From Gammaproteobacteria bacterium (GTDB lineage: Bacteria > Pseudomonadota > Gammaproteobacteria > GCA-001735895), in NCBI GenBank assembly GCA_030066085.1, contig JASJCI010000001.1:132380-196379 (forward strand): a stretch of DNA of 64,000 nucleotides, in the 5' to 3' direction. The notes beneath the pieces were generated by a model, which worked only from the letters and a program-made list of their open reading frames with translations, made no database searches and was not told the DNA's origin. Shown piece by piece: positions 3,492 to 49,840 of the stretch. Numbering within the stretch: position 1 is the first letter of the stretch; every line of letters starts with the position of its first letter. A program made the translations under genes and the position numbers.

Positions 3492-4155
3492 CAGCGGTCT
3501 ACGAACTGGTAGCCGTGGCCGCGCACGGTGCGGATGATCTCGGGTCGTTCGAGCTTGTGTCGCAGGCGACTGACGAGTACGTCGATCGCGCGGCTATAGA
3601 TGTCGGCATCGACGCCACGCAGCGCCAGCATGATGTCGTCGCGCGACAACACCCGGTCACGGTTGCTAACCAGTAAATCCAGCAGGCCGAACTCGGCCGC
3701 GGTCAGCGGCAGCGGCTGGCCGGAGCGGGTCAACACCTTCTTTTTCCGGTCGAGCAGGAATTCGCCGATTTCGACAGCCTCGCCGTCGCCGGACTGGCGG
3801 CTGCGGCGGAAGATATTCTGGATACGCGCCACCAGTTCGCGTGGTTCGAAAGGCTTGGGCAGATAATCGTCGGCACCGAGTTCGAGACCAACGACCCGAT
3901 CCATGACTTCACCGCGGGCGGTCAGCATCACGATCGGAACATCGCTGAACTGGCGTATGCGTCGACAGGTTTCGAAACCGTCGATCCCGGGCAACATGAC
4001 GTCGAGAATGAGCAGGTCGAAGCTATCCCGGCGGATCCGCTCGATAGCCTCCAGCGGTCGTGTTTCAGCCTCGAGTGCCAGGTCGAAACGCGTGAAGTAT
4101 TGTTGCAGCGCTTCGGCCAGGCGTTCGTCATCGTCGATGATCAGGATTTTATGCA
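3491..4155 (-). CDS. OmpR-family response regulator
   Basis: Receiver (MHKILIIDDDERL...LILDVMLPGIDGF...KPF) plus winged-helix C-terminus (VLTRSGQPLPLTAAEFGLL...TVRGHGYQF). True start taken at MHKIL (ATG 4153-4155), not the upstream track start at 4231. Confidence 0.85.
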
Positions 4156-4233
4156 TCAGCCGGGGCCAGTCAGGCGGAACCCTATTGTACCGCGCGGCCT
4201 CCGCCAGGGAAGCCGCGCGGCGCTTGCACACGC

Positions 4234-4707
4234 TTACTGCGAACCGGCGTGACTGCCGTGCCGGTGGCGGTAGTGTTGCCGACGATGCTCGATAAATTCA
4301 CCCAGCTCCTGCTTCTGTCCGGGTTGCAGCGAATCGAGGAAAAGCGCGAGCGAAGCGATTACCTCGGGAGCCTTGTCGTCCAGCATGCGGGTTTTTTCGC
4401 GCACCATCTGCAGTGCCAGCGCCTGGTCGAATACGGGTGCAGTCAGCATTTGCTCGACCTCGGCCAGCTGTTCGGCCTTGCTGGCACGGGCATCGATGAC
4501 AATTTGCGCCACGAGTTCGGCAAGGGCAGCAAAATTCTGCCGCTGCAAATCGTCGAGTTCGAGATGTTTGCTTACCCGCTCGGTGGCAAACTCGACCTTT
4601 TCCGCTGGCGTCATGTGCCAGTGGCCGTGCTTGGCGAAGGCATAGGCAGCTCCGGTGCTGCCGATAATCAGGACGGTTGCTGCGATCAGGGTTCGGGATG
4701 TTTTCAT
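4234..4707 (-). CDS. Periplasmic CpxP/Spy/ZraP-family (LTXXQ) stress protein
   Basis: 157 aa with signal peptide MKTSRTLIAATVLIIGSTGAAYA, LTxxQ-like repeats (LDDLQRQNF, LQPGQKQELGEF) and His-rich C-terminus. Directly upstream and co-directional with the response regulator/kinase pair. Confidence 0.6.
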   Translation of the reverse strand: MKTSRTLIAATVLIIGSTGAAYAFAKHGHWHMTPAEKVEFATERVSKHLELDDLQRQNFAALAELVAQIVIDARASKAEQLAEVEQMLTAPVFDQALALQMVREKTRMLDDKAPEVIASLALFLDSLQPGQKQELGEFIEHRRQHYRHRHGSHAGSQ

Positions 4708-27435: not shown

Positions 27436-27466
27436 AAAAAAAAAGCCCGCGATGAAATCGCGGGCT
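27436..27466 (-). terminator. Rho-independent terminator of aceA (GCCCGCGAT-TTC-ATCGCGGGC + T9 on minus strand)
   Basis: Plus strand reads A9-GCCCGCGATGAAATCGCGGGC, 23 nt after the aceA stop. On the minus strand it is a 9-bp stem followed by a T-run. Confidence 0.65.
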
Positions 27467-27488
27467 TTCGACCGGTTGGCGAGGTCGG

Positions 27489-34699: not shown

Positions 34700-35230
34700 A
34701 TGAGCACATCCGCGACCACCAGACTCAACGACGTCGATCTCGAAGCCGTCGCCGGCCTGGCCGGCAAGATCCAGCAGCAACCCGGGGTTGCTGACACCAG
34801 CTGGAGCGCCAGGGTCAGCTGGAAAGGCGGCTTCCGCTCGGAGGCGCAAATACGGGAGTTCGGGCCCATCACGTCCGACGAACCCGCGCAGCTCGGCGGC
34901 ACCGATACCGGACCCAACCCGGTCGAGCAGCTGCTGGCCGCCCTCGGCAATTGCCTGGCGGTCGGTTACGCCGCCAATGCCAGCGCCGCCGGTATCGAGA
35001 TTCGTGACCTGTCGATCGAGCTCGAGGGCGAGCTCGACCTGCACACCTTTCTCGGGCTTGCGCCGGGGGGTAATGCCGGCTACGACAATATCTCGGTGCG
35101 GGTCAGGATCGACTGCGACGCACCGGCCGCAGCGCTCGAAGCGCTGCATGACAGGGTTGTCGGTACCTCGCCGGTCGGGCACACGCTCGCGCGCGCGGTG
35201 CCGCTCAAGATCGAGCTCGATCATTCGTAA
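34700..35230 (+). CDS. OsmC-family protein (second paralogue)
   Basis: 176 aa from ATG 34700 (MSTSATTRLNDVDLEAVAGLAGKIQ...GPNPVEQLLAALGNCLAVGY...). Upstream part of the track ORF is GC-artefact. Confidence 0.65.
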   Translation: MSTSATTRLNDVDLEAVAGLAGKIQQQPGVADTSWSARVSWKGGFRSEAQIREFGPITSDEPAQLGGTDTGPNPVEQLLAALGNCLAVGYAANASAAGIEIRDLSIELEGELDLHTFLGLAPGGNAGYDNISVRVRIDCDAPAAALEALHDRVVGTSPVGHTLARAVPLKIELDHS

Positions 35231-36042
35231 AACACGAACGCGCGGGTTTCGATGCTCTCGCGCGGCGCGGCATCGGCCGGCGCATCCGGCAGGTGGATCG
35301 CGGTGTGGATGCTGCACGGCCTGCGACCGCCGTCGATCGAGTCGAAGGTGCGAAACAGCAGCACCTCGTCCGGCCGCATTCGGGGGTAGTAGAACCAGCG
35401 CTGGCGGTCCGAGTGCAGCGCCAGCTGGATTTCACCGACATGATTCGGTGCGCGCCGCTCGGTATCGACCAGGTCGTCATCGGCGAGACTGCGCGCGTCG
35501 ACCAGCGCCAGCGGGTAGTCCTCGACCGGATCGACCAGCGGCCGCCAGACGTTGACGATCTGGAAACGATCCCGTGCCAGCTGCTCGGCCTCGTCGCCGA
35601 GCTGTTCGCGCAGGCAGACGAAGCCCGAATTCGACGTGTAATCATTGTGCACCAGGGTCGCGGGCTCGCGTACCTGCTTGCGTTCGCGCAGCCCGGGATC
35701 CGAGGCGCGTACGGTGTGGTCGAAGATGTGAACCCGCGACGCACCGGTGACACGCTGCAGGAAATCGACGATTTCGGTTTCGTAAACGCTTTCGATCTGT
35801 GCCGGATCGAGAAAATTCTTCACCGCGCTGGCAAACCGCATCAAATCGAATCCCGACGGATGCTGGCCGAGCTCGCGCGCCTGCTCGTCGTCCTCGCGCA
35901 CGCGCGCATCCTCGACCGCGACCCGCACGACGCGCATCGGCTGGTCGATTTCGTGCCGCGCGTCGCGTCCCGCGCTGGATGCATAGTAGACCGGGCGTTC
36001 GCTGCGCCCGGCAAGGTACTCGACTTCGGCCTCGACGCTCAT
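35221..36042 (-). CDS. Hypothetical protein with HxD...H motifs (possible non-haem Fe/2OG-oxygenase or CmcJ-like fold; uncertain)
   Basis: 273 aa from ATG 36042 (MSVEAEVEYLAGRSERPVYY...), GAGAGG RBS. Motifs VHIFDHTVR, LVHNDYTSN, SIHTAIH. Track start at 36258 would overlap the aminotransferase gene. Confidence 0.4.
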   Translation of the reverse strand: MSVEAEVEYLAGRSERPVYYASSAGRDARHEIDQPMRVVRVAVEDARVREDDEQARELGQHPSGFDLMRFASAVKNFLDPAQIESVYETEIVDFLQRVTGASRVHIFDHTVRASDPGLRERKQVREPATLVHNDYTSNSGFVCLREQLGDEAEQLARDRFQIVNVWRPLVDPVEDYPLALVDARSLADDDLVDTERRAPNHVGEIQLALHSDRQRWFYYPRMRPDEVLLFRTFDSIDGGRRPCSIHTAIHLPDAPADAAPRESIETRAFVFYE

Positions 36043-36142
36043 GGGTGGTTGGACCTCTCTCGGGTTGGCTGGTGGATGAAAACGCGCGAACTCTTTTCGC
36101 TGGTAACATAAAGTCTCGCGCGCGAATGTAAAGCCGGGCGTT

Positions 36143-37312
36143 TCATAAATTCTCGAGGAACTGGCCGATACGTCGGCAGGCTTCGCGCAACTCGTCATCC
36201 GAGACCGTGCAGGATACGCGCACGTGACCCGCGGCACTGGCACCGAAAGCGCTGGCATCGAGCAGGGATACGCCGGTCGTATCGTACAGGCGGCGGGTAA
36301 ACTCGCCGACCTCGAGGCCCGTGCCGCGCACGTCTACCATCATGAACATCCCGGCATCGGGTAACAGCGGCTTGAGTCCCGGCATCGCGTCCAGCGCCGC
36401 GAACAGGTAGTCGCGCCGTTGGCGATAAATTGCGGCCATGCGCGCAAGTTCGTCGTTACAGTGGGTCAGCGCCTCGGCGCCGGCCTGCTGAATAAAGCCC
36501 GGCAGACCATAGAGCATGCACAGGGCCAGTTTTTCCAGGTGCGCGATCATGCGTTCGGGCGCGACCGCCCAGCCGACCCGCCAGCCCGACATCGCATAGG
36601 ACTTCGACAGGCTGCCGATGGTGACCAGGCGATCGTCGATACCGTCGACCGCGGCGGTGGGATGAAACTCACCTTCGAACACGAAATCGCCGTAGACCTC
36701 GTCGGCCACGATCCACAGGTCATGCCGCCGGGCGAGTTCGGCGATGTATTCCAGTTCTTCGCGGTTTAGCGCAATGCCGGTGGGATTGCTGGGCGAAGCA
36801 TAGAATATCGCGCGCGTGCGTTCGCTGATCGCCGCCTCCAGCGCCTCCGGGTCGAGGCGAAAACCGCGCTCGGCAGCGAGAACTACCGGCACCAGCCTGG
36901 CCCCCGGCGCCTGGATCGTGGCCTCGTAAGTAACGTACATCGGCTGCAACACGATCGCCTCGTCCCCGGCATCGAGCAGGCACTGCGCGCAGGCAAACAG
37001 CGCATTTTGCGCGCCCGAGGTCGTGATCACCCGCTTACTGTCGACCGGTCGGCCGCAGATGCGCGCATGGCGCGCGGCAATGGCGTCGCGCAGTTCCTGG
37101 TGACCGAGAATCGAGGTGTAGTGGGTGTCACCCTGCTGCATCGCGCGTACCGCGCGTTCGACGATGCGCCCCGGCGTGGCGAAATCCGGATCGCCGACGC
37201 TGAGTACGATCACGTCTTCGCCGCGCGCCTGCGCCTGCCTGGCCTCGTAGTGCAGGTCCCAGGCATCGGCGGCGTCGCCGCGCACGCGTTCGGTCAAGCC
37301 TGAATATCTCAT
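36143..37312 (-). CDS. PLP-dependent aminotransferase class I/II (aspartate/aromatic aminotransferase-like)
   Basis: 389 aa with fold-type I motifs and PLP-lysine region (IGSLSKSYAMSGWRVGWAV). Confidence 0.85.
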   Translation of the reverse strand: MRYSGLTERVRGDAADAWDLHYEARQAQARGEDVIVLSVGDPDFATPGRIVERAVRAMQQGDTHYTSILGHQELRDAIAARHARICGRPVDSKRVITTSGAQNALFACAQCLLDAGDEAIVLQPMYVTYEATIQAPGARLVPVVLAAERGFRLDPEALEAAISERTRAIFYASPSNPTGIALNREELEYIAELARRHDLWIVADEVYGDFVFEGEFHPTAAVDGIDDRLVTIGSLSKSYAMSGWRVGWAVAPERMIAHLEKLALCMLYGLPGFIQQAGAEALTHCNDELARMAAIYRQRRDYLFAALDAMPGLKPLLPDAGMFMMVDVRGTGLEVGEFTRRLYDTTGVSLLDASAFGASAAGHVRVSCTVSDDELREACRRIGQFLENL

Positions 37313-37325
37313 GAGTTTTTCGGCG

Positions 37326-37910
37326 TTATTCCCAGCCCGGTCGCAATTCGTCGAGCAGCGGAACGATCCAGGGTTTGTGCACCAGCAGTTCGTCGCGACT
37401 GTTGCCGGTCAGCTCGTAAGGCAGCACCAGCCAGTCGTCGCAGCGTTCCAGGTAGTAGTCGGGCGGTGGATTGGCCTGCAAGGGGTCCTCGCGGTAATAC
37501 GGCGCCGCCACGCGCACCTCCTGCGGCATGTTGCGCCGGGTATTCTGCCGCAGGCGATCGATGACCGCGTGCACGTTGCGCCCGGTACTGTAGACGTCGT
37601 CGACGATCAGCAGCGAGTTTTCGGCATCGAGGTTTTCGAACAGGTACTGCAGGCCGTGCGCGCGTATGTCGGTACCCTGCTGCAACTGACGGAAGTAATC
37701 ATCGCGTCCCTGGTAGGAAGTACGGATCGCGATGTGGTCGGTCTCGACCCCGAGATACTGCAGGCATTCCTGTACGTAGATCCCGACCGTCGAGCCGCCG
37801 CGCCAGACGCCGACGATGAAATCGGGTCGCAGCCCGCTGTCGTATATCAGCACCGCGAGCCGGTAGGAATCCTGCAGCAACCGGGTCTCGTCGATGAATC
37901 GTTTTTGCAT
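37326..37910 (-). CDS. Gpt-like phosphoribosyltransferase-domain protein (paralogue A)
   Basis: 194 aa with PRPP-binding loop LLIVDDVYSTGRNV and FIVGVWRGGSTVG (compare Gpt GIIAVSRGG / FIVIDDLVDTGGT). Confidence 0.65.
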   Translation of the reverse strand: MQKRFIDETRLLQDSYRLAVLIYDSGLRPDFIVGVWRGGSTVGIYVQECLQYLGVETDHIAIRTSYQGRDDYFRQLQQGTDIRAHGLQYLFENLDAENSLLIVDDVYSTGRNVHAVIDRLRQNTRRNMPQEVRVAAPYYREDPLQANPPPDYYLERCDDWLVLPYELTGNSRDELLVHKPWIVPLLDELRPGWE

Positions 37911-37932
37911 CGAAAATGTTTCCCCGCGGGGG

Positions 37933-37962
37933 CCTGTGATATTCTGCGAAGACTATCACAGG
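37933..37962. promoter_or_regulatory. Perfect 9-bp inverted repeat CCTGTGATA-N12-TATCACAGG between the divergent phosphoribosyltransferase paralogues
   Basis: Read directly at 37933-37941 and 37954-37962, centred in the 72-nt divergent intergenic region, about 20 nt upstream of ATG 37983. Confidence 0.4.
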
Positions 37963-37982
37963 CGACGCCGAATGCACCCCCG

Positions 37983-38561
37983 ATGACCGAAAAACAGTAC
38001 CTGTCGGCCCAGCAGCTGCTGGAGGATTCGTTTCGCCTGGGTGCCGAGGTAATCAGGGACGGATTTCGCCCCAGCATTATGATCGCGATCTGGCGCGGCG
38101 GGGTGCCGATGGGAATCGCGATCCAGGAACTGTTTGCCTGGTACGGCATCGACACGGATCACATCGCGATCCGCACTTCTTCATACACCGGGATCGACGG
38201 CCAGTCGCCGGAGATTCGCATTCACGGCCTGAACTACGTCGTCAAGAACTGCAGCCGCGAGGACAGCCTGTTGATCGTCGACGACGTGTTCGATACCGGG
38301 GTAACGATCGACGCCGTAATCGCACGCCTCGAGGACAGGGCGCGGCGCAACACGCCACACGACATCCGTGTCGCGGTGCCCTACTACAAACCATCGCGCA
38401 ACCGTAGCGGGCGCGTGCCGGACTACTACCTCCACGAAACCGAGGCCTGGCTCAAGTATCCGCACTCGCTCGAAGGGCTCGGCATCGAGGAAGTGGCTGC
38501 CAATCGACCGGAGCTGTACGACATCATCAAGGATCGGCTGGACTCGCCACCTGGGAAATAA
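37983..38561 (+). CDS. Gpt-like phosphoribosyltransferase-domain protein (paralogue B)
   Basis: 192 aa from ATG 37983 (MTEKQYLSAQQLLEDSFRLGAEVIRDGFRPSIMIAIWRGGVPMG...LLIVDDVFDTGVTI). Roughly 45% identical to paralogue A by eye, including shared HIAIRTS and PYY motifs. Confidence 0.65.
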   Translation: MTEKQYLSAQQLLEDSFRLGAEVIRDGFRPSIMIAIWRGGVPMGIAIQELFAWYGIDTDHIAIRTSSYTGIDGQSPEIRIHGLNYVVKNCSREDSLLIVDDVFDTGVTIDAVIARLEDRARRNTPHDIRVAVPYYKPSRNRSGRVPDYYLHETEAWLKYPHSLEGLGIEEVAANRPELYDIIKDRLDSPPGK

Positions 38562-39753
38562 CCGAGTGCCCGGCGGGCGCCGGCGTCGCCGACAGCTTGA
38601 GGAAAACACAGATACAGCCCGACGAAAACGCGAGCGCGGCAGCGGCAACAAAGGCAAAGGCGAGTTCGAACTCGGCAATCAGTCCGGCCAGCAGTGCACC
38701 GAACATGCCGACGCCGTCGAGCACGGTAAACACCACCCCCAGCGTGGTAGCCTCGGACTTGCCGGAGTATTCCACCGCCGCCGCCAGCACCACCGGGCGC
38801 ACCGCGGTCAGCATCACGACCGCCGGGGTCAGTCCGGCCAGCGCCCAGAACAGGCCGTCGCCGACACCCGCGACCAGGGCGAAAAAACTGGCGGCGAACA
38901 GCGTCAGCAGGATCAGCGGTTTGCGTCCACGAGTATCGCTGTACTTGCCGAACACGGGTTGAAACAAGCTGCCCAGCATCAGGATGGCCGCAAATATCAG
39001 GCCGGCGTAGAACGGCGACAGGCCGTGTTCGCTCTGGAAAAACAGCGGCGCCATGGCCAGCTGCCCGACCAGGGCCATGTTGTACAGGATCATTACCGCC
39101 ATCAGCGCGAGGCCTGCCGGGCGAAACCATTGCCGCGCCAGCCCGCGGAAATCGATCGGGTTGACCCGTCCCGGATTGTCGCGACTGATGCGGCTTGCAA
39201 CCGGTATGAACAGGATGCCCATCAAAACAGCCGGTAATACCAGGATTTGCAGCGTTGTCTGCCAGTCGAACCACCCTAGCAGGAACCCGGTCGACAGCGG
39301 ACCCAGCACCTCGGCACCGATGCTGCCGCCAATCGCGTGAATACCGAGCGCCTGCGCGCGGCGCTCGGGTAACTCCTTGACCAGTACGCCGGTGGCCACC
39401 GGGTGCCAGAACGCATCACCCATGACCCCGAAAGCGAGCAACAGGGTGACCGCCCAGAATCCCGGCGCCAGCGTCGCGCACAGGTAGCCGATAGCGACCC
39501 ACCAGAAACTGAGCAGCATCAGCAGTCCGGGACGCGTCGACCGATCGGACAGGATGCCCGCCGGGATGTAGGCGAGGCCGGCACCGATCCCGTTGACGGT
39601 CAGTATCAGTCCCACCTCGGTGGGTCCGAGCCCCATGCTCGCGGCAATTGCCGGCGCCAGCAGCCACAGCGTGCCGGCAACCCAGTCGTTGGTCATGTGG
39701 CCCAGCGACAGCGCGCCGAGCAGGAAACGGTGTTGGCGGGTCAGTGGCGCCAC
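38527..39753 (-). CDS. MFS transporter
   Basis: 408 aa with 12 TM segments and MFS signature context (GILSDRSTRPG). Its 3' end overlaps the convergent phosphoribosyltransferase B gene by 35 nt. Confidence 0.75.
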   Translation of the reverse strand: MAPLTRQHRFLLGALSLGHMTNDWVAGTLWLLAPAIAASMGLGPTEVGLILTVNGIGAGLAYIPAGILSDRSTRPGLLMLLSFWWVAIGYLCATLAPGFWAVTLLLAFGVMGDAFWHPVATGVLVKELPERRAQALGIHAIGGSIGAEVLGPLSTGFLLGWFDWQTTLQILVLPAVLMGILFIPVASRISRDNPGRVNPIDFRGLARQWFRPAGLALMAVMILYNMALVGQLAMAPLFFQSEHGLSPFYAGLIFAAILMLGSLFQPVFGKYSDTRGRKPLILLTLFAASFFALVAGVGDGLFWALAGLTPAVVMLTAVRPVVLAAAVEYSGKSEATTLGVVFTVLDGVGMFGALLAGLIAEFELAFAFVAAAALAFSSGCICVFLKLSATPAPAGHSVISQVASPADP

Positions 39754-39756
39754 CGG

Positions 39757-40539
39757 CTACATTTCCATCGTTTGCGCCCGCGGTTTCAGGCTGACCTGCT
39801 GCAGCTGGCGATAGAACGGCAGGTGATGGTCGAGAAAGTCGCGCAGCTGCGGCGCATCGCGACACAGCTGTTCGAATGCCTCGGCCGCGCGTCGTTCCTC
39901 GTCCGCAGCCGGGGGACGGATACCGCGCGAACTGGTGACGTCACGGTGCCATCCCTGCACGTATTGCCAGTCTTCCGGCGCGGCCGCGGGGTCCCAGCGG
40001 AGAGCCTGGTCGCGATAGTCGAGGCCCAGCATGCGCCAGAATCGACGCATCATGCCCGCGGTATCGGCCTGGACCAGTTCGGCTTCCAGTACCGGCCCCG
40101 GGACAATTCCGGCATCGAGCAGGCGGCTGTAATGCTGCCACTGGGCTTCGAGCCCGACTTCGTAGCAGGTCAATTCCGGATCGAGCCGATAGAAGGACGG
40201 AATAGCCCGCAGCGGGTTGCGTACCAGGAAACAATGCACGATGCGACGATAGAAATCACCGTGATCGAACAGCTCCGGCATCACGTAGTAGCTCATGTCC
40301 TTGACGAACACCGCCGCGGTTTCCGCCTTTTGCAGGATCAGGTCGCGGGTTTCGACGTAACTCGAGGGATGGCCGCACTGGCCGGAGAAATGCGCCAGCT
40401 CGCGATCGCCGCGCTTCGCGTAGTAGTACTGCAGGAACGGTTCGTGCAGGCAATCGAAATCGCCGCGTTCGCGCATGATGCGTTCGATCGCGGTCGACAT
40501 GGACCGCGGGTGGGCCCAGAGTACGACTATCGGAAACAT
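39757..40539 (-). CDS. Sulfotransferase-family protein (P-loop 5'-PSB-like motif)
   Basis: 260 aa from ATG 40539 (MFPIVVLWAHPRSMSTAIERIMRERGDFDCLHEPF...). PRSMST resembles the PAPS 5'-phosphosulfate-binding loop of the Stf0/sulfotransferase fold. Confidence 0.5.
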   Translation of the reverse strand: MFPIVVLWAHPRSMSTAIERIMRERGDFDCLHEPFLQYYYAKRGDRELAHFSGQCGHPSSYVETRDLILQKAETAAVFVKDMSYYVMPELFDHGDFYRRIVHCFLVRNPLRAIPSFYRLDPELTCYEVGLEAQWQHYSRLLDAGIVPGPVLEAELVQADTAGMMRRFWRMLGLDYRDQALRWDPAAAPEDWQYVQGWHRDVTSSRGIRPPAADEERRAAEAFEQLCRDAPQLRDFLDHHLPFYRQLQQVSLKPRAQTMEM

Positions 40540-40550
40540 GATCCAGGCGG

Positions 40551-41882
40551 CTACTCGCCGCGCACCACCTTGGTAATTGCAGGCAAGTAGAATAACAGCG
40601 TTGCCGCACGCAGCAACATGAATAGCGACAGTCCGAGATACAGGCCATGGTTGCCCAGGGCCGGAATGGTCACCTGCAGCAGCGCGAGGTAGAGCAATAG
40701 CGAGACGACCATGGCATTGCGCATTTCGCGGGTGTGTCCGCTGCCGATGAATATGCCGTCGAGCTGGAAACTCCACACCGACAGCAGCGGTGCCAGCACC
40801 ATCCACGGCAGGTAGCTGCGCGCCGCGTCGGCGACGCTGTCGATACTCGTGAACAGGGCGATGATGCTATCGCCCAGCAGGAAAAAGACGATCGAAGCCA
40901 GCAGCGCAATCGCTGCGCCCCACAGCGTGGTCAGCTGGATGGCGCGCCGAAACGGTCGTTCGCGGCGCGCACCGTAGGCGCTGCCCGCCATCGCCTCGGC
41001 CGCATGCGCAAAACCGTCCAGGCCGTAGGCGGTGAAGTTGAGAAAATGCAGCAACACCGCGTTGGCGGCGAGAATGACATCGCCCTGGCGCGCGCCCATC
41101 GCCGTGAAGTAGGCAAAAGCGAACAGCAGGCACAGGGTTCTGACGAAAATGTTGCCATTGGCCTGGAACAGCTGCAGCAGTGCCTTGCGCTCGAGTACGC
41201 GGCCGCGGTCGTAGCGCTGCAGGGCGAGGCCGATCTGGGTGCGCAAAAGGTAAAAACCGAGCCCGGCAGCGAGGTACTCGGCAATCAGCGACGCCAGTGC
41301 CACCCCCTGCACGCCCCAGTCGAAAGCGAGCACGAACAGCAGATCGAGCAGCATGTTGACCAGGTTCAGAAACAGCTGCAGGACAAAAACCGCGCGCGTA
41401 TTGTGCAGGCCGATCAAAACTCCCATGAACACGTAAGTGCACAGCACCGCCGGCGCGCTCCAAAGGCGGATGCGCGCATAGTCGGCGGCCAGCGCTTCGA
41501 CCGCGGCGCTGCTGTCGACCAGCTGCAGGGCCAGCCCGATCAGCGGTCGTCCGGCCAGGCAGGTCAGCACACCGAGCGCCGCGGCGAGGATCAGCACGCG
41601 CAAAATGATATCCGACAGTTCGCGCCAGTTGCTCGCGCCGTATGCACGGGCCACGAAACCGGTGGTACCCATGCGCAGGAAACCGAAACCCCAGTAGAGG
41701 AAACTGAATATCAGCGCGCCCAGCGCGACCGCGCCGATCGCTGCCGGTTCGGGCAAATGCCCGACGACGGCGGTATCGACCGCGCCCACCAGCGGCACCG
41801 ACAGGTTCGACAGGATAATCGGTCCGGCAAGCACCCAGACCTTGCGATGGTTTACTTCGAGTCCACCGCCGAGATCAGCCAT
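40551..41882 (-). CDS. MATE-family efflux transporter (NorM/DinF-like)
   Basis: 443 aa with 12 TM segments and MATE N-terminus (VWVLAGPIILSNLSVPLVGAVDTAVVGHL). Confidence 0.85.
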   Translation of the reverse strand: MADLGGGLEVNHRKVWVLAGPIILSNLSVPLVGAVDTAVVGHLPEPAAIGAVALGALIFSFLYWGFGFLRMGTTGFVARAYGASNWRELSDIILRVLILAAALGVLTCLAGRPLIGLALQLVDSSAAVEALAADYARIRLWSAPAVLCTYVFMGVLIGLHNTRAVFVLQLFLNLVNMLLDLLFVLAFDWGVQGVALASLIAEYLAAGLGFYLLRTQIGLALQRYDRGRVLERKALLQLFQANGNIFVRTLCLLFAFAYFTAMGARQGDVILAANAVLLHFLNFTAYGLDGFAHAAEAMAGSAYGARRERPFRRAIQLTTLWGAAIALLASIVFFLLGDSIIALFTSIDSVADAARSYLPWMVLAPLLSVWSFQLDGIFIGSGHTREMRNAMVVSLLLYLALLQVTIPALGNHGLYLGLSLFMLLRAATLLFYLPAITKVVRGE

Positions 41883-43272
41883 CGCGACCGGGGTCGGACC
41901 AGCGCAGCTCGTCGCCCTCTTCCGGTTCGCTCACCCGCTCACGGGTTTCGTCGTGTGCCGACAGATAAAGCTGGTTGGAGGTAGCCTGGGTCGATGGCAC
42001 CGCGACGAACGGCTTGCGCTTGTCCGGCGTACCAACTCGCCGGCGACGCGTGATGATGGCAAAAATCGACAGCAACAGGCTGATCAGCGCGAAGTAGTAA
42101 AACAGGCCGGTCGGGCCGAGGAAGTGCATGAACTGCCCCGCCACGATCGGCCCGCTGACCGCGCCCGCGCCGTAAGTGATCAACAGCGCACCCGCGACCT
42201 GCACCCGCTGATGGGCACCGACCTGGTCGTTGGCCGTGGCCGCGGCCAGCGAATACAGCGTGAAGACGAAAGCGCCGAAAATCCCCGCGCCCACCAGGAT
42301 CAGTAGAAACTGCTGCACGAAAAGTTGCCAGATCGCCGCCGCGGCAACCACCAGCGGGATCAGCACCAGCAACGGACCGCGACCAATCCGGTCGGACAGG
42401 TGGCCAACCGGCCACTGCAGGAACAGTCCGCTGATAATCAGGGTGGCCATGAAGGTCGACAGCTGCGCTTCGCTGAGGCCGATGTTGGTTGCAAACACCG
42501 GTCCGAGCCCGTGAATGCTGGCGTTGACCAGCCCGCAGCAGAAAACGCCGAACACCCCGAGCGGCGCGAGACGAAACAGTTCGGCGATTGGCATGCGCCG
42601 CGACTGCACCGGCACCGGTGCGCGCGATCGCGTCAGCAAAACCGGGATCAGCGCCAGCGAGAAAAGGATCGATGCCAGGCTGAACAGCAGGAATTCAGAG
42701 GGATCGCCGACGTTGAGCAGAAACTGGCCGCAACCCGCGGCGAAGTAATTCACGGTCATGTAGAAAGACAGGATCTGGCCGCGGTTCTGATTACTCGCAT
42801 TTTCGTTGAGCCAGCTCTCGGTGACCATGATCATGCCTGCCATGCAGAATCCCGCCACCAGCCGAAACAGCATCCACGCGTAGGCGTCGACCACAATCGG
42901 GTGCATCAATGCGGACACCGACATCATCGACGCGAAGGCCGCGAACGAACGAATGTGCCCGACTCGCGTGACGACACGACTCGCGAACAGGCCGCCGAGC
43001 AGCAGGCCGCTGAAATAGGAAGCGACGACGAAACCGACCAGCACGGTCGAAAAACCCTCGACCTGGGTGCGCACGCCGAGCAGGGTCGAAAACAGGCCAT
43101 TGGCCAGCAACAGCAGGCCGTAGCTGAGTAGCAGGGAAAAAACGGTGCCGAGCGTCTTGAGCAAGGGCGGGGTTTCAGGAAGCTGTTTGCCGCCTGTTAC
43201 TCTAGAACAATTCCCGCGCGATATCACCCGTAAACCTGCGTTACGAGCGGGTTTTTGCCCGGCCGGGCTCAT
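41875..43272 (-). CDS. MFS transporter (start uncertain)
   Basis: About 465 aa with 12 TM segments. 8-nt overlap with the MATE gene start. Confidence 0.7.
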   Translation of the reverse strand: MSPAGQKPARNAGLRVISRGNCSRVTGGKQLPETPPLLKTLGTVFSLLLSYGLLLLANGLFSTLLGVRTQVEGFSTVLVGFVVASYFSGLLLGGLFASRVVTRVGHIRSFAAFASMMSVSALMHPIVVDAYAWMLFRLVAGFCMAGMIMVTESWLNENASNQNRGQILSFYMTVNYFAAGCGQFLLNVGDPSEFLLFSLASILFSLALIPVLLTRSRAPVPVQSRRMPIAELFRLAPLGVFGVFCCGLVNASIHGLGPVFATNIGLSEAQLSTFMATLIISGLFLQWPVGHLSDRIGRGPLLVLIPLVVAAAAIWQLFVQQFLLILVGAGIFGAFVFTLYSLAAATANDQVGAHQRVQVAGALLITYGAGAVSGPIVAGQFMHFLGPTGLFYYFALISLLLSIFAIITRRRRVGTPDKRKPFVAVPSTQATSNQLYLSAHDETRERVSEPEEGDELRWSDPGRDG

Positions 43273-45112: not shown

Positions 45113-45137
45113 TCCAGGCTGCCAAACCAGCCCGCGA

Positions 45138-45172
45138 GGCCTGCATGGAGTCATCCATGCAGGCCTTTTTTC
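45138..45172 (+). terminator. Rho-independent terminator after the substrate-binding gene (GGCCTGCATGG-loop-CCATGCAGGCC + T7)
   Basis: 11-bp perfect stem followed by TTTTTTCT, 26 nt after the stop. Implies differential expression of the SBP gene versus the permease and ATPase genes. Confidence 0.65.
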
Positions 45173-49814: not shown

Positions 49815-49840
49815 GCCGGTCTCGCCGCGACGAGACCGGC
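49815..49840. terminator. Perfect 10-bp hairpin GCCGGTCTCG-CCGCGA-CGAGACCGGC between convergent genes (no T-tract)
   Basis: Read directly. Lacks U-run on either strand, so terminator function is uncertain. Confidence 0.3.

Follow-up and report, generated by a model that had tools for sequence, protein, structure and literature searches.

Why would a bacterium keep two related phosphoribosyltransferase (PRTase) genes head to head, and do the two encode the same kind of enzyme? We addressed this question for a pair of genes, here called A and B, in a 64,000-nucleotide stretch (the window) of contig JASJCI010000001.1 from a gammaproteobacterial genome (assembly GCA_030066085.1). We found that B has, judging from its residues and its predicted structure, a complete 6-oxopurine PRTase active site and fold, that A falls by sequence in a derived clade without the general-base aspartate, and that A-type genes were not found without a divergent PRTase partner, save at contig ends and in one case of a truncated B. 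A preliminary description of the window had reported two PRTases of about 190 amino acids (aa), 72 nt apart, both with WRGG and LLIVDDVxxTG motifs and both larger than Gpt or Hpt. We could confirm each of these points: the two open reading frames (ORFs) encode 194 aa (A) and 192 aa (B), 10 to 40 residues more than E. coli Gpt and Hpt, and both proteins contain WRGG in the pyrophosphate (PPi) loop and LLIVDDVxxTG in the phosphoribosyl pyrophosphate (PRPP) loop. Both also exceed the gathering threshold of the Pfam family PF00156 (26.3 bits), with 32.4 bits for A and 35.7 bits for B, and they are 43% identical to each other over 180 aa (pairwise comparison, E = 1e-52). That description thus recognized the paralogy and the unusual arrangement, but it overlooked the asymmetry between the two proteins, A having no catalytic Asp and never being found alone.

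We analyzed this asymmetry by counting residues in alignments of 81 A orthologues and 68 B orthologues. LLIVDDV..TG and WRGG are invariant across both sets, and so is the stacking Trp (81/81 in A, 68/68 in B). The rest of the PRPP loop differs, as it reads DDVFDTGxT in B and DDV[YF][SGA][TS]G[RQ]N in A. The Asp of the DDxxD[TS]G motif, which we take to be the general base and equivalent to human D137, is Asp104 in all 68 B orthologues and is never found in A, where the position is occupied by Ser (61 sequences), Gly (19), or Ala (1). The terminal Thr of the loop (Thr108 in B, 68/68) is replaced by Asn in 76 of the 81 A sequences, and the residue contacting O6 of the base (Lys136 in B, 68/68) is Lys in 45 and Arg in 36 of them. 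The flexible loop is SSY in B, whereas in A one Ser is deleted and six residues, with an invariant Tyr, are inserted. The window proteins follow this pattern: B has VDDVFDTGVT, YYKPSR, the SSY loop, and the stacking Trp, and A has VDDVYSTGRN and retains WRGG, both Asp residues of DD, S-Y in the flexible loop, and the stacking Trp, with the catalytic Asp replaced, the terminal Thr changed to Asn, the base-binding Lys changed to Arg, and the 6-aa insertion in the flexible loop. The base-binding Lys is invariant in 11 diverse B-type sequences, and B orthologues are 65 to 84% identical to B, a conservation resembling that of housekeeping enzymes. The PYY motif noted in the preliminary description is present but does not belong to divergent C-terminal tails, since it sits in a conserved strand just before this Lys.

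In a rough neighbor-joining tree, the A-types formed one main clade nested within the Asp-containing family, and three other Asp-less representatives (P0214, P0216, and P0180) were placed elsewhere. Most of the distant representatives of the family are B-like, and E. coli Gpt and Hpt, which served as outgroups only, fell far outside it.

The conservation of the arrangement was assessed with one genome per species, which yielded 80 loci with A orthologues 59 to 79% identical to A. According to their titles, the hosts include Halioglobus, Congregibacter, Parahalioglobus, NOR5-3, Porticoccus, Woeseiaceae, and Arenicella, as well as Oleiphilus, Mangrovimicrobium, "Ca. Spongiihabitans," and the Olavius Gamma 3 symbiont; a few labels from other phyla, all on metagenome-assembled genomes (MAGs), are probably binning errors. 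We found the head-to-head pair in 74 of these 80 loci. In 65 of them, B is divergent from A at a distance of 53 to 210 nt (median, 83); the spacer is longer in two (358 or 816 nt), and a gene block of 3.2 to 3.7 kb separates A from B in seven loci of Congregibacter-type genomes. No B was visible in five loci, where the contig stops too near A or within the inserted block, and the remaining locus (L038) has a truncated B. There, about the first 23 codons of B are left upstream of an intact A (L038:228-296), from either a real truncation or a chimeric contig, and apart from the contig-end cases this is the sole sampled A-type gene without an intact adjacent partner. The pair is a conserved unit in numerous Gammaproteobacteria of marine and sediment origin (Halieaceae, Woeseiaceae, Porticoccus, Arenicella, and symbionts). 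The divergent duplicated arrangement, singled out as noteworthy in the preliminary description, is clearly under selection; it persists in these loci while the flanks change.

The pairing also extends to more divergent sequences. Four deep A-types (P0123, P0145, P0161, and P0250; 39 to 54% identical to A) have a divergent PRTase partner 61 to 107 nt upstream, and the partner is canonical (DDxxDTGxT, Y[YF]KP) in the three cases for which the DNA was read. Two of these deep A-types also have WPGG, with loss of the PPi-loop Arg, and one has DN in place of DD. B-type relatives outside the paired clade were solitary where we examined their neighborhoods (P0177, P0142, P0277, and P0139): one adjoins an adenylate kinase gene in a MAG, two are on phage-like contigs, and another lies beside a release-factor gene and an AddAB-like pair encoding a PD-(D/E)XK nuclease and a UvrD-type helicase.

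Since A lacks a residue central to catalysis and always came with its partner, contig ends and one truncated B aside, the pair suggests an undescribed two-part enzyme or enzyme-plus-helper unit. We propose, with a confidence that stops a little short of even, that B is an active hypoxanthine-guanine (possibly also xanthine) PRTase, that A is a partner working with B, and that both are co-expressed from one bidirectional promoter region. Given its residues and fold, B would convert hypoxanthine, guanine, and possibly xanthine, together with PRPP, into nucleoside monophosphates. A would have arisen by duplication of a B-type gene, would then have lost the general-base Asp and undergone changes in the residues contacting the 5'-phosphate and the base, and would have remained divergently paired with a canonical partner from then on. 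A would work with B and not alone, most likely as a heteromeric partner that still binds PRPP or a nucleotide, is weakly catalytic or noncatalytic, and modulates B.

Several observations weigh against this proposal and bring in its main rival, namely, that A is an independent enzyme for another base. All 81 A orthologues of the window clade keep the PRPP-binding and base-stacking residues (WRGG, DD, TG, S-Y loop, and stacking Trp), which would also fit an active enzyme acting on a different base, and other type I PRTases (APRT, Xpt-type XPRT, UPRT, and OPRT) function without this Asp. According to this alternative, A and B would be salvage enzymes for complementary bases (hypoxanthine and guanine for B; xanthine, adenine, or another base for A), adjacent for co-regulation only and not interacting. 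Sulfolobus offers a precedent, as it has two Gpt-like paralogues, one a hypoxanthine-guanine-xanthine PRTase (HGXPRT) and the other an adenine PRTase (APRT), and both are among the top structural matches of A and B. We nevertheless consider independent enzymes a somewhat doubtful explanation: a strict head-to-head arrangement across families and orders, while all flanking genes change, is rare for such enzymes, A-types were never found alone, and in some deep A-types the Arg of the PPi loop or an Asp of DD is missing as well. Moreover, Sulfolobus APRT was ruled out as a direct analogue of A because it keeps the catalytic Asp (IIDDITDTGDS).

For an A protein working with B, the closest functional analogy is the human pair HPRT1/PRTFDC1, in which a canonical 6-oxopurine PRTase likewise has a paralogue with a small residue at the position of the catalytic Asp. 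The PRPP loop of PRTFDC1 reads VEDVVGTGRT, compared to VDDVY[S/G]TGRN in A, and PRTFDC1 is matched by the profile of the A/B family. PRTFDC1 was reported to interact with HPRT, and the enzymatic significance of PRTFDC1 is unclear (PMC3144895). The human genes result, however, from an independent duplication in another PRTase subfamily and are unlinked in eukaryotes, and a heteromer of A and B is a prediction only. A more specific version of our proposal, which we put forward only tentatively and hold less probable than the proposal itself, is a purine PRTase that would be an obligate heteromer of A and B, with the Asp-less A as a pseudo-subunit that senses ligands and serves the catalytic B in a regulatory or structural role. 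Such a complex would be a genomically hard-wired bacterial counterpart of HPRT/PRTFDC1, and Spirochaetales may have come to the same solution independently, by gene fusion.

This fusion is one of three di-domain relatives of 367 to 402 aa, in which a canonical N-terminal PRTase domain is followed by a degenerate C-terminal one. They thereby pair a catalytic and a degenerate domain from the same family as A and B, yet they are fused, not divergent, and the PRPP motif of their second domain is far more completely lost and not specifically of the A type. As a further point against our proposal, the degenerate domains score equally against A-type and B-type profiles, and we therefore regard the di-domain proteins as a parallel case and not as A-B fusions. 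The representatives are P0146/P0294-P0299 from Spirochaetales MAGs (L089:4001-5104; e.g., MBR6061236.1, 367 aa), P0132, and P0213, and the cluster of one of them counts 34 members, from Spirochaetales MAGs. Their C-terminal PRPP motifs are degenerate (e.g., LLLTTDCGDGRL, with WPNG), and in L089 the di-domain gene directly follows dnaN.

To which PRTases is this family related? Ordinary Gpt, Hpt, Xpt, or Apt orthology was ruled out for A and B because their scores on the NCBIfam equivalog models are far under the cut-offs: B reaches 29.9 for Hpt (TIGR01203; cut-off, 150), 22 for Gpt (PRK09177; cut-off, 138), and 19 for HGPRT (PRK09162; cut-off, 181), and A scores below B on all three. The best NCBIfam matches of A are PyrR models, with 23.9 bits (E = 2e-5) against cut-offs of at least 138. 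BLAST comparisons of A and B with E. coli Gpt and Hpt gave E values above 0.1. These scores bear out the earlier view of A and B as diverged Gpt-like paralogues. Common to B and the two E. coli enzymes are the type I PRTase fold, the PRPP motif, the Asp used in catalysis, and the Lys that binds the base; the RGG loop and stacking Trp of B are Gpt-like, and its SSY loop and KPSR are Hpt-like.

The best solved sequence relatives are the Pyrococcus horikoshii purine PRTase (PDB entry 1vdm) and the Sulfolobus solfataricus proteins GpT-2 (HGXPRT; 4z1o/4zfn/5bqo) and GpT-1 (APRT; 4trb), with profile E values of 2.8e-12 to 5e-7. Human PRTFDC1 and Helicobacter pylori XGHPRT are within reach of the family profile as well. 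AlphaFold2 models of the two proteins (mean predicted local distance difference test scores of 83 for B and 86.5 for A) both have the Rossmann-like PRTase core and the hood, and both end in two short helices beyond the Gpt core. The top PDB fold matches of these models were again Sulfolobus HGXPRT and APRT and P. horikoshii 1vdm (Foldseek E of ∼1e-12; template modeling [TM] scores of 0.6 to 0.78). Among the best 50 PDB matches of each model, all were PRTases or PRTase-fold proteins with a probability of 1.00, including PyrR, PRTFDC1-type paralogues, and one hypothetical protein bound to guanosine tetraphosphate (ppGpp).

The archaeal Gpt-like purine PRTases (1vdm; 4z1o/4zfn/5bqo; 4trb) thus appear, from sequence and models, to be the nearest relatives of A and B. 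They share RGG, DDxxDTG, and a PDYY...W..P hood with them, and the Sulfolobus proteins GpT-1 and GpT-2 additionally share the C-terminal extension and the existence of two paralogues with different roles. In contrast, the bacterial family resembles HPRT in its SSY flexible loop and also has KPSR, and because identity is just 16 to 30% and the TM scores are 0.6 to 0.78, we consider it a sister family and not a demonstrated member of the archaeal group. A search of 1.84 billion cluster representatives retrieved 239 clusters at E ≤ 1e-30 and 1,548 at E ≤ 1e-3, so the family is distinct and of moderate size. Where its members have a name, it is only "hypoxanthine phosphoribosyltransferase" or "phosphoribosyltransferase." Targeted full-text searches of the literature, none of which was aimed directly at the family or its host taxa, retrieved no paper on the family or the pairing. 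Type I purine PRTases, the specialization of paralogues, and bidirectional promoters are in themselves already known.

The positions of A, B, and the features between and around them are listed in Table 1. The start codon of B lies inside a 416-aa ORF of the ORF list (37311-38561, plus strand), which is spurious: its first 224 codons are antisense to A and the spacer in the frame of B, and long ORFs are unreliable in this GC-rich DNA. The window also matches contig JARPNO010000308.1 of a gammaproteobacterial MAG (GCA_029979825.1).

Table 1. Features of the A/B locus (window coordinates)
Feature	Position	Strand	Remarks
Paralogue A, A-type PRTase-fold protein	37326..37910	-	194 aa; ORF and Pfam
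Paralogue B, canonical Gpt/archaeal-type 6-oxopurine PRTase (by sequence and model)	37983..38561	+	192 aa; ATG at 37983
Divergent A-B spacer	37911..37982		72 nt; has to accommodate both promoters
Palindrome GCCTGTGATA-N12-TATCACAGGC	37932..37963		10-nt perfect arms at 37932-41 and 37954-63
Conserved dyad core TGATATTCT-GCGA-AGACTATCA	37937..37958		Matches TGnTAnnCT-N4/5-AGnnTAnCA
TGATATTCT	37937..37945	+	Extended -10-like box (TGnTAnnnT) towards B; putative promoter element
TGATAGTCT	37950..37958	-	Second extended -10-like dyad half, towards A; putative
TATCAC	37936..37941	-	-10-like hexamer 25 nt upstream of A start; putative
Class I/II pyridoxal phosphate (PLP) aminotransferase	36143..37312	-	Starts 13 nt past A stop; linked only in closest clade (L004-L040)
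Major facilitator superfamily (MFS) transporter	38527..39753	-	Convergent with B, 35-nt 3' overlap; linked only in closest clade

We next considered what the spacer contributes to the pair. The perfect 9-bp inverted repeat described earlier between the genes (CCTGTGATA-N12-TATCACAGG, 37933-37962) is present and extends to perfect arms of 10 nt; with one mismatch allowed, the arms lengthen to 14 nt (13/14 matches) and enclose a 4-nt loop, GCGA. The center of the repeat (37947.5) is within 1 nt of that of the spacer. Chance would yield 0.01 occurrences of the 18-base pattern in the window, where there is one; perfect 10-nt inverted repeats in general are not rare in it, with 16 compared to 3.5 in shuffled sequences. 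Other perfect inverted repeats with arms of at least 10 nt and short loops, at 1400-1426, 27442-27468, 45137-45166, and 49815-49840, are probably terminators or other hairpins.

The perfect palindrome is confined to this genome and one relative (L098), whose A is 89% identical. What is conserved more widely is a weaker dyad, TGnTAnnCT-N4/5-AGnnTAnCA, found once per locus and always in the A-B spacer in the window and about 26 related species-level genomes (L006-L033); neither the 64-kb window nor the 8-kb loci contain a second dyad. An alignment of 23 spacers of the closest clade showed that the B-proximal two-thirds are conserved and that about 20 nt beside A are variable. Each half of the dyad matches an extended -10 element (TGnTAnnnT) on the strand transcribing across the dyad, and the A-proximal half reads TATCAY outward, 24 to 27 nt from the A start codon. 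The position of the TATCAC hexamer is equivalent to that of TATCAT or TATAGT boxes in distant relatives, and every clade has -10-like boxes in equivalent places. In distant clades there is a single strong symmetric box, ∼30 to 50 nt from A in most loci, such as TATCATA, whose two strands give TATCAT and TATGAT; AGTATAGT behaves likewise.

Because the invariant bases of the dyad coincide with extended -10 positions on both strands, the palindrome looks like a lineage-specific perfection of a putative symmetric bidirectional core promoter. A and B would accordingly be co-expressed from one compact symmetric promoter, of which the palindrome would be this genome's perfected form. Bacterial symmetric bidirectional promoters, with divergent transcription from one short pseudo-symmetric -10 region, are known (Warman et al. 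2021, as relayed in PMC10268837). The class is defined by divergent start sites 7 to 25 bp apart and by -10-like elements on both strands of one short segment. The TATCATA boxes of the distant relatives resemble this class, with -11A and -7T pairing reciprocally. The window clade differs in having two TGnTAnnCT boxes that lie 4 to 5 bp apart and read across each other, a layout that does not have the canonical geometry of start sites 18 bp apart. Two findings weigh against the promoter part of our proposal: a consensus sigma-70 scan of the palindrome region revealed no -35/-10 pair, and the -10 consensus does not explain the invariant C at -8 in both half-sites, which could mark a protein-binding site.

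The latter finding is the reason for keeping an overlapping operator as a candidate. The palindrome would then be, as supposed in the preliminary description, an operator; it would bind a dedicated dimeric repressor or activator of both genes and possibly define a regulon. Besides the invariant C at -8 and its G partner, this idea draws on the 22- to 23-bp dyad itself, whose symmetric positions are invariant in ∼26 genomes while the adjacent A leader varies, and on three lineages (the window, L031, and L032) in which near-perfect palindromes with different inner sequences have arisen, independently in L031 and L032. We consider a dedicated operator rather unlikely, and the original claim is weakened: the perfect arms are absent in relatives at ≤79% identity, all invariant positions but one coincide with extended -10 positions, distant clades have just one symmetric -10 box, no second site exists in the 64-kb window or the 8-kb loci, and no regulator gene lies within 6 kb of the pair or is syntenic with it. 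A search for the palindrome in a metagenome collection did not define a regulon either, as it returned the orthologous locus in two contigs and otherwise unrelated contigs of low GC content (0.34 to 0.56, compared to 0.62 to 0.63 for the orthologous contigs), on which no relatives of A or B were found. Compared by eye with what we take to be the LexA, CRP, NrdR, PurR, and sigma-54 motifs, the palindrome fits neither in spacing nor in half-sites, and we make no claim from this comparison.

Could A itself be the regulator? A PRTase-fold protein acting on RNA, as PyrR, or on DNA, as PurR, might sense PRPP or nucleotides and control the pair through the leader or the dyad. The PyrR matches of A, among both NCBIfam models and structures, and the sequence conservation of the B-side leader are in line with such a role, which we nevertheless judge very improbable: the PyrR scores remain at 24 bits against cut-offs of at least 138, A has no DNA-binding domain, and the B leader has neither a conserved RNA structure nor an Rfam match. 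No riboswitch or known RNA element was found in the spacer either: nowhere in the window did an Rfam match reach the gathering score, and in the spacer nothing but noise appeared at E values up to 10. A consensus scan found no intrinsic terminator at the palindrome.

Purine-base salvage enzymes are usually regarded as single-gene homo-oligomers. The asymmetry of the paralogues and their obligate pairing are, in our view, the results worth following up, as they split a Gpt-like family uniformly annotated as "hypoxanthine phosphoribosyltransferase" into a canonical enzyme and a derived, Asp-less, head-to-head paralogue. If A is a partner or regulatory subunit, the pair would be a new enzyme-pseudoenzyme pairing in nucleotide metabolism and a tractable bacterial model for the poorly understood relationship between HPRT and PRTFDC1. 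Should A turn out to be an enzyme for another base, its current annotations would be wrong in hundreds of genomes. The spacer, for its part, would be a clean natural example of a putative compact symmetric bidirectional promoter driving two mRNAs.

Some loci show how the spacer can be interrupted. In L010 (L010:3643-4000; MAG contig CAXMSP010000155.1), one of the two loci with a longer spacer, an insertion of ∼285 bp resembling a miniature inverted-repeat transposable element (MITE), with perfect 33-bp terminal inverted repeats (TATTAACCCGGTGACAATATATATCGTATTCAG...), separates the conserved dyad from the A start codon. L011 and L013 have only the last ∼18 nt of this repeat at the same place, as an excision leftover or a solo end. 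The inserted gene block is found in L059, L067-L070, L073, L077, and L084 (Congregibacter and NOR5-3 type genomes) and consists of five same-strand genes in six loci and of different genes in L067; the block includes a cytochrome-c-like gene (CxxCH motif), whose place is taken by another ORF in L070 and L073. The divergent orientation of A and B is retained in these loci, with the shared spacer broken.

We also analyzed the genes surrounding the pair. In the window, A is followed by the aminotransferase gene, with which it is probably co-transcribed because only 13 nt follow the A stop codon. This region (35221-37312) comprises a CmcJ/NvfI-family oxidoreductase (NF041278, 267 bits for a cut-off of 80) and the PLP aminotransferase, whose best NCBIfam match is GntC-like and under its cut-off. 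On the side of B (38527-43272) are the MFS gene, a Sulfotransfer_5 protein, MatE, and a second MFS gene. The convergent 35-nt overlap of B with the first MFS gene, reported earlier, was verified and is also present in relatives. The aminotransferase, MFS, sulfotransferase, MatE, and CmcJ/NvfI-type genes are syntenic with the pair only in the closest clade (L004-L040), and no third co-conserved gene family was found in the 45 remaining loci. Because flanking synteny ends outside the closest clade, we rejected a biosynthetic cluster or a third gene conserved with the pair; the flanking genes could be a small-metabolite modification/export cluster unrelated to the PRTases.

These neighbors bear on a further suggestion of the preliminary description, a non-salvage role. 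This could be the ribosylation of a modified or unusual base (e.g., a 7-deazapurine), the formation of a signaling nucleotide, or the inactivation of a toxic base analogue. The transporters, the sulfotransferase, and the CmcJ/NvfI-type oxygenase of the closest clade could be read in this sense, as could a B-type relative (P0139) inside a FolE-QueD-PRTase-QueE run on a phage-like contig and more distant PRTases adjoining FolE, QueD, and QueE homologues on four viral contigs. At this locus we found the suggestion improbable and no conserved biosynthetic or defense partner to sustain it: conservation of the flanking genes stops at the closest clade, the queries used detected no 7-deazaguanine gene or other PRTase in the window, and B has what appears to be a complete 6-oxopurine active site and housekeeping-like identity among orthologues. 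As to anti-phage defense, PADLOC gave no matches.

The phage-borne relatives were considered in their own right. In L107 (L107:1304-3484; Logan SRR27584576, phage-like), genes overlapping by 4 nt form a same-strand run of GTP cyclohydrolase I, PTPS/QueD, the PRTase P0139, and a radical-SAM QueE-like gene, that is, genes of preQ0-type biosynthesis. P0139 is 48% identical to the window B and has a canonical active site; no close phage relatives of it were found in IMG/VR. Because this PRTase is embedded in a 7-deazaguanine gene run, its context suggests that some members of the family may ribosylate 7-deazapurine bases. Gpt-like PRTases 23 to 27% identical to P0139 are encoded at ∼4001-4500 on the IMG/VR viral contigs L115, L117, L118, and L120, with FolE, QueD, and/or QueE homologues within 1 to 2 kb; L115 has no FolE match, and L118 has no QueD match, its QueE match being a 30-residue fragment ∼3 kb away. 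As far as these gene neighborhoods indicate, the linkage between PRTases and 7-deazaguanine genes recurs in phages.

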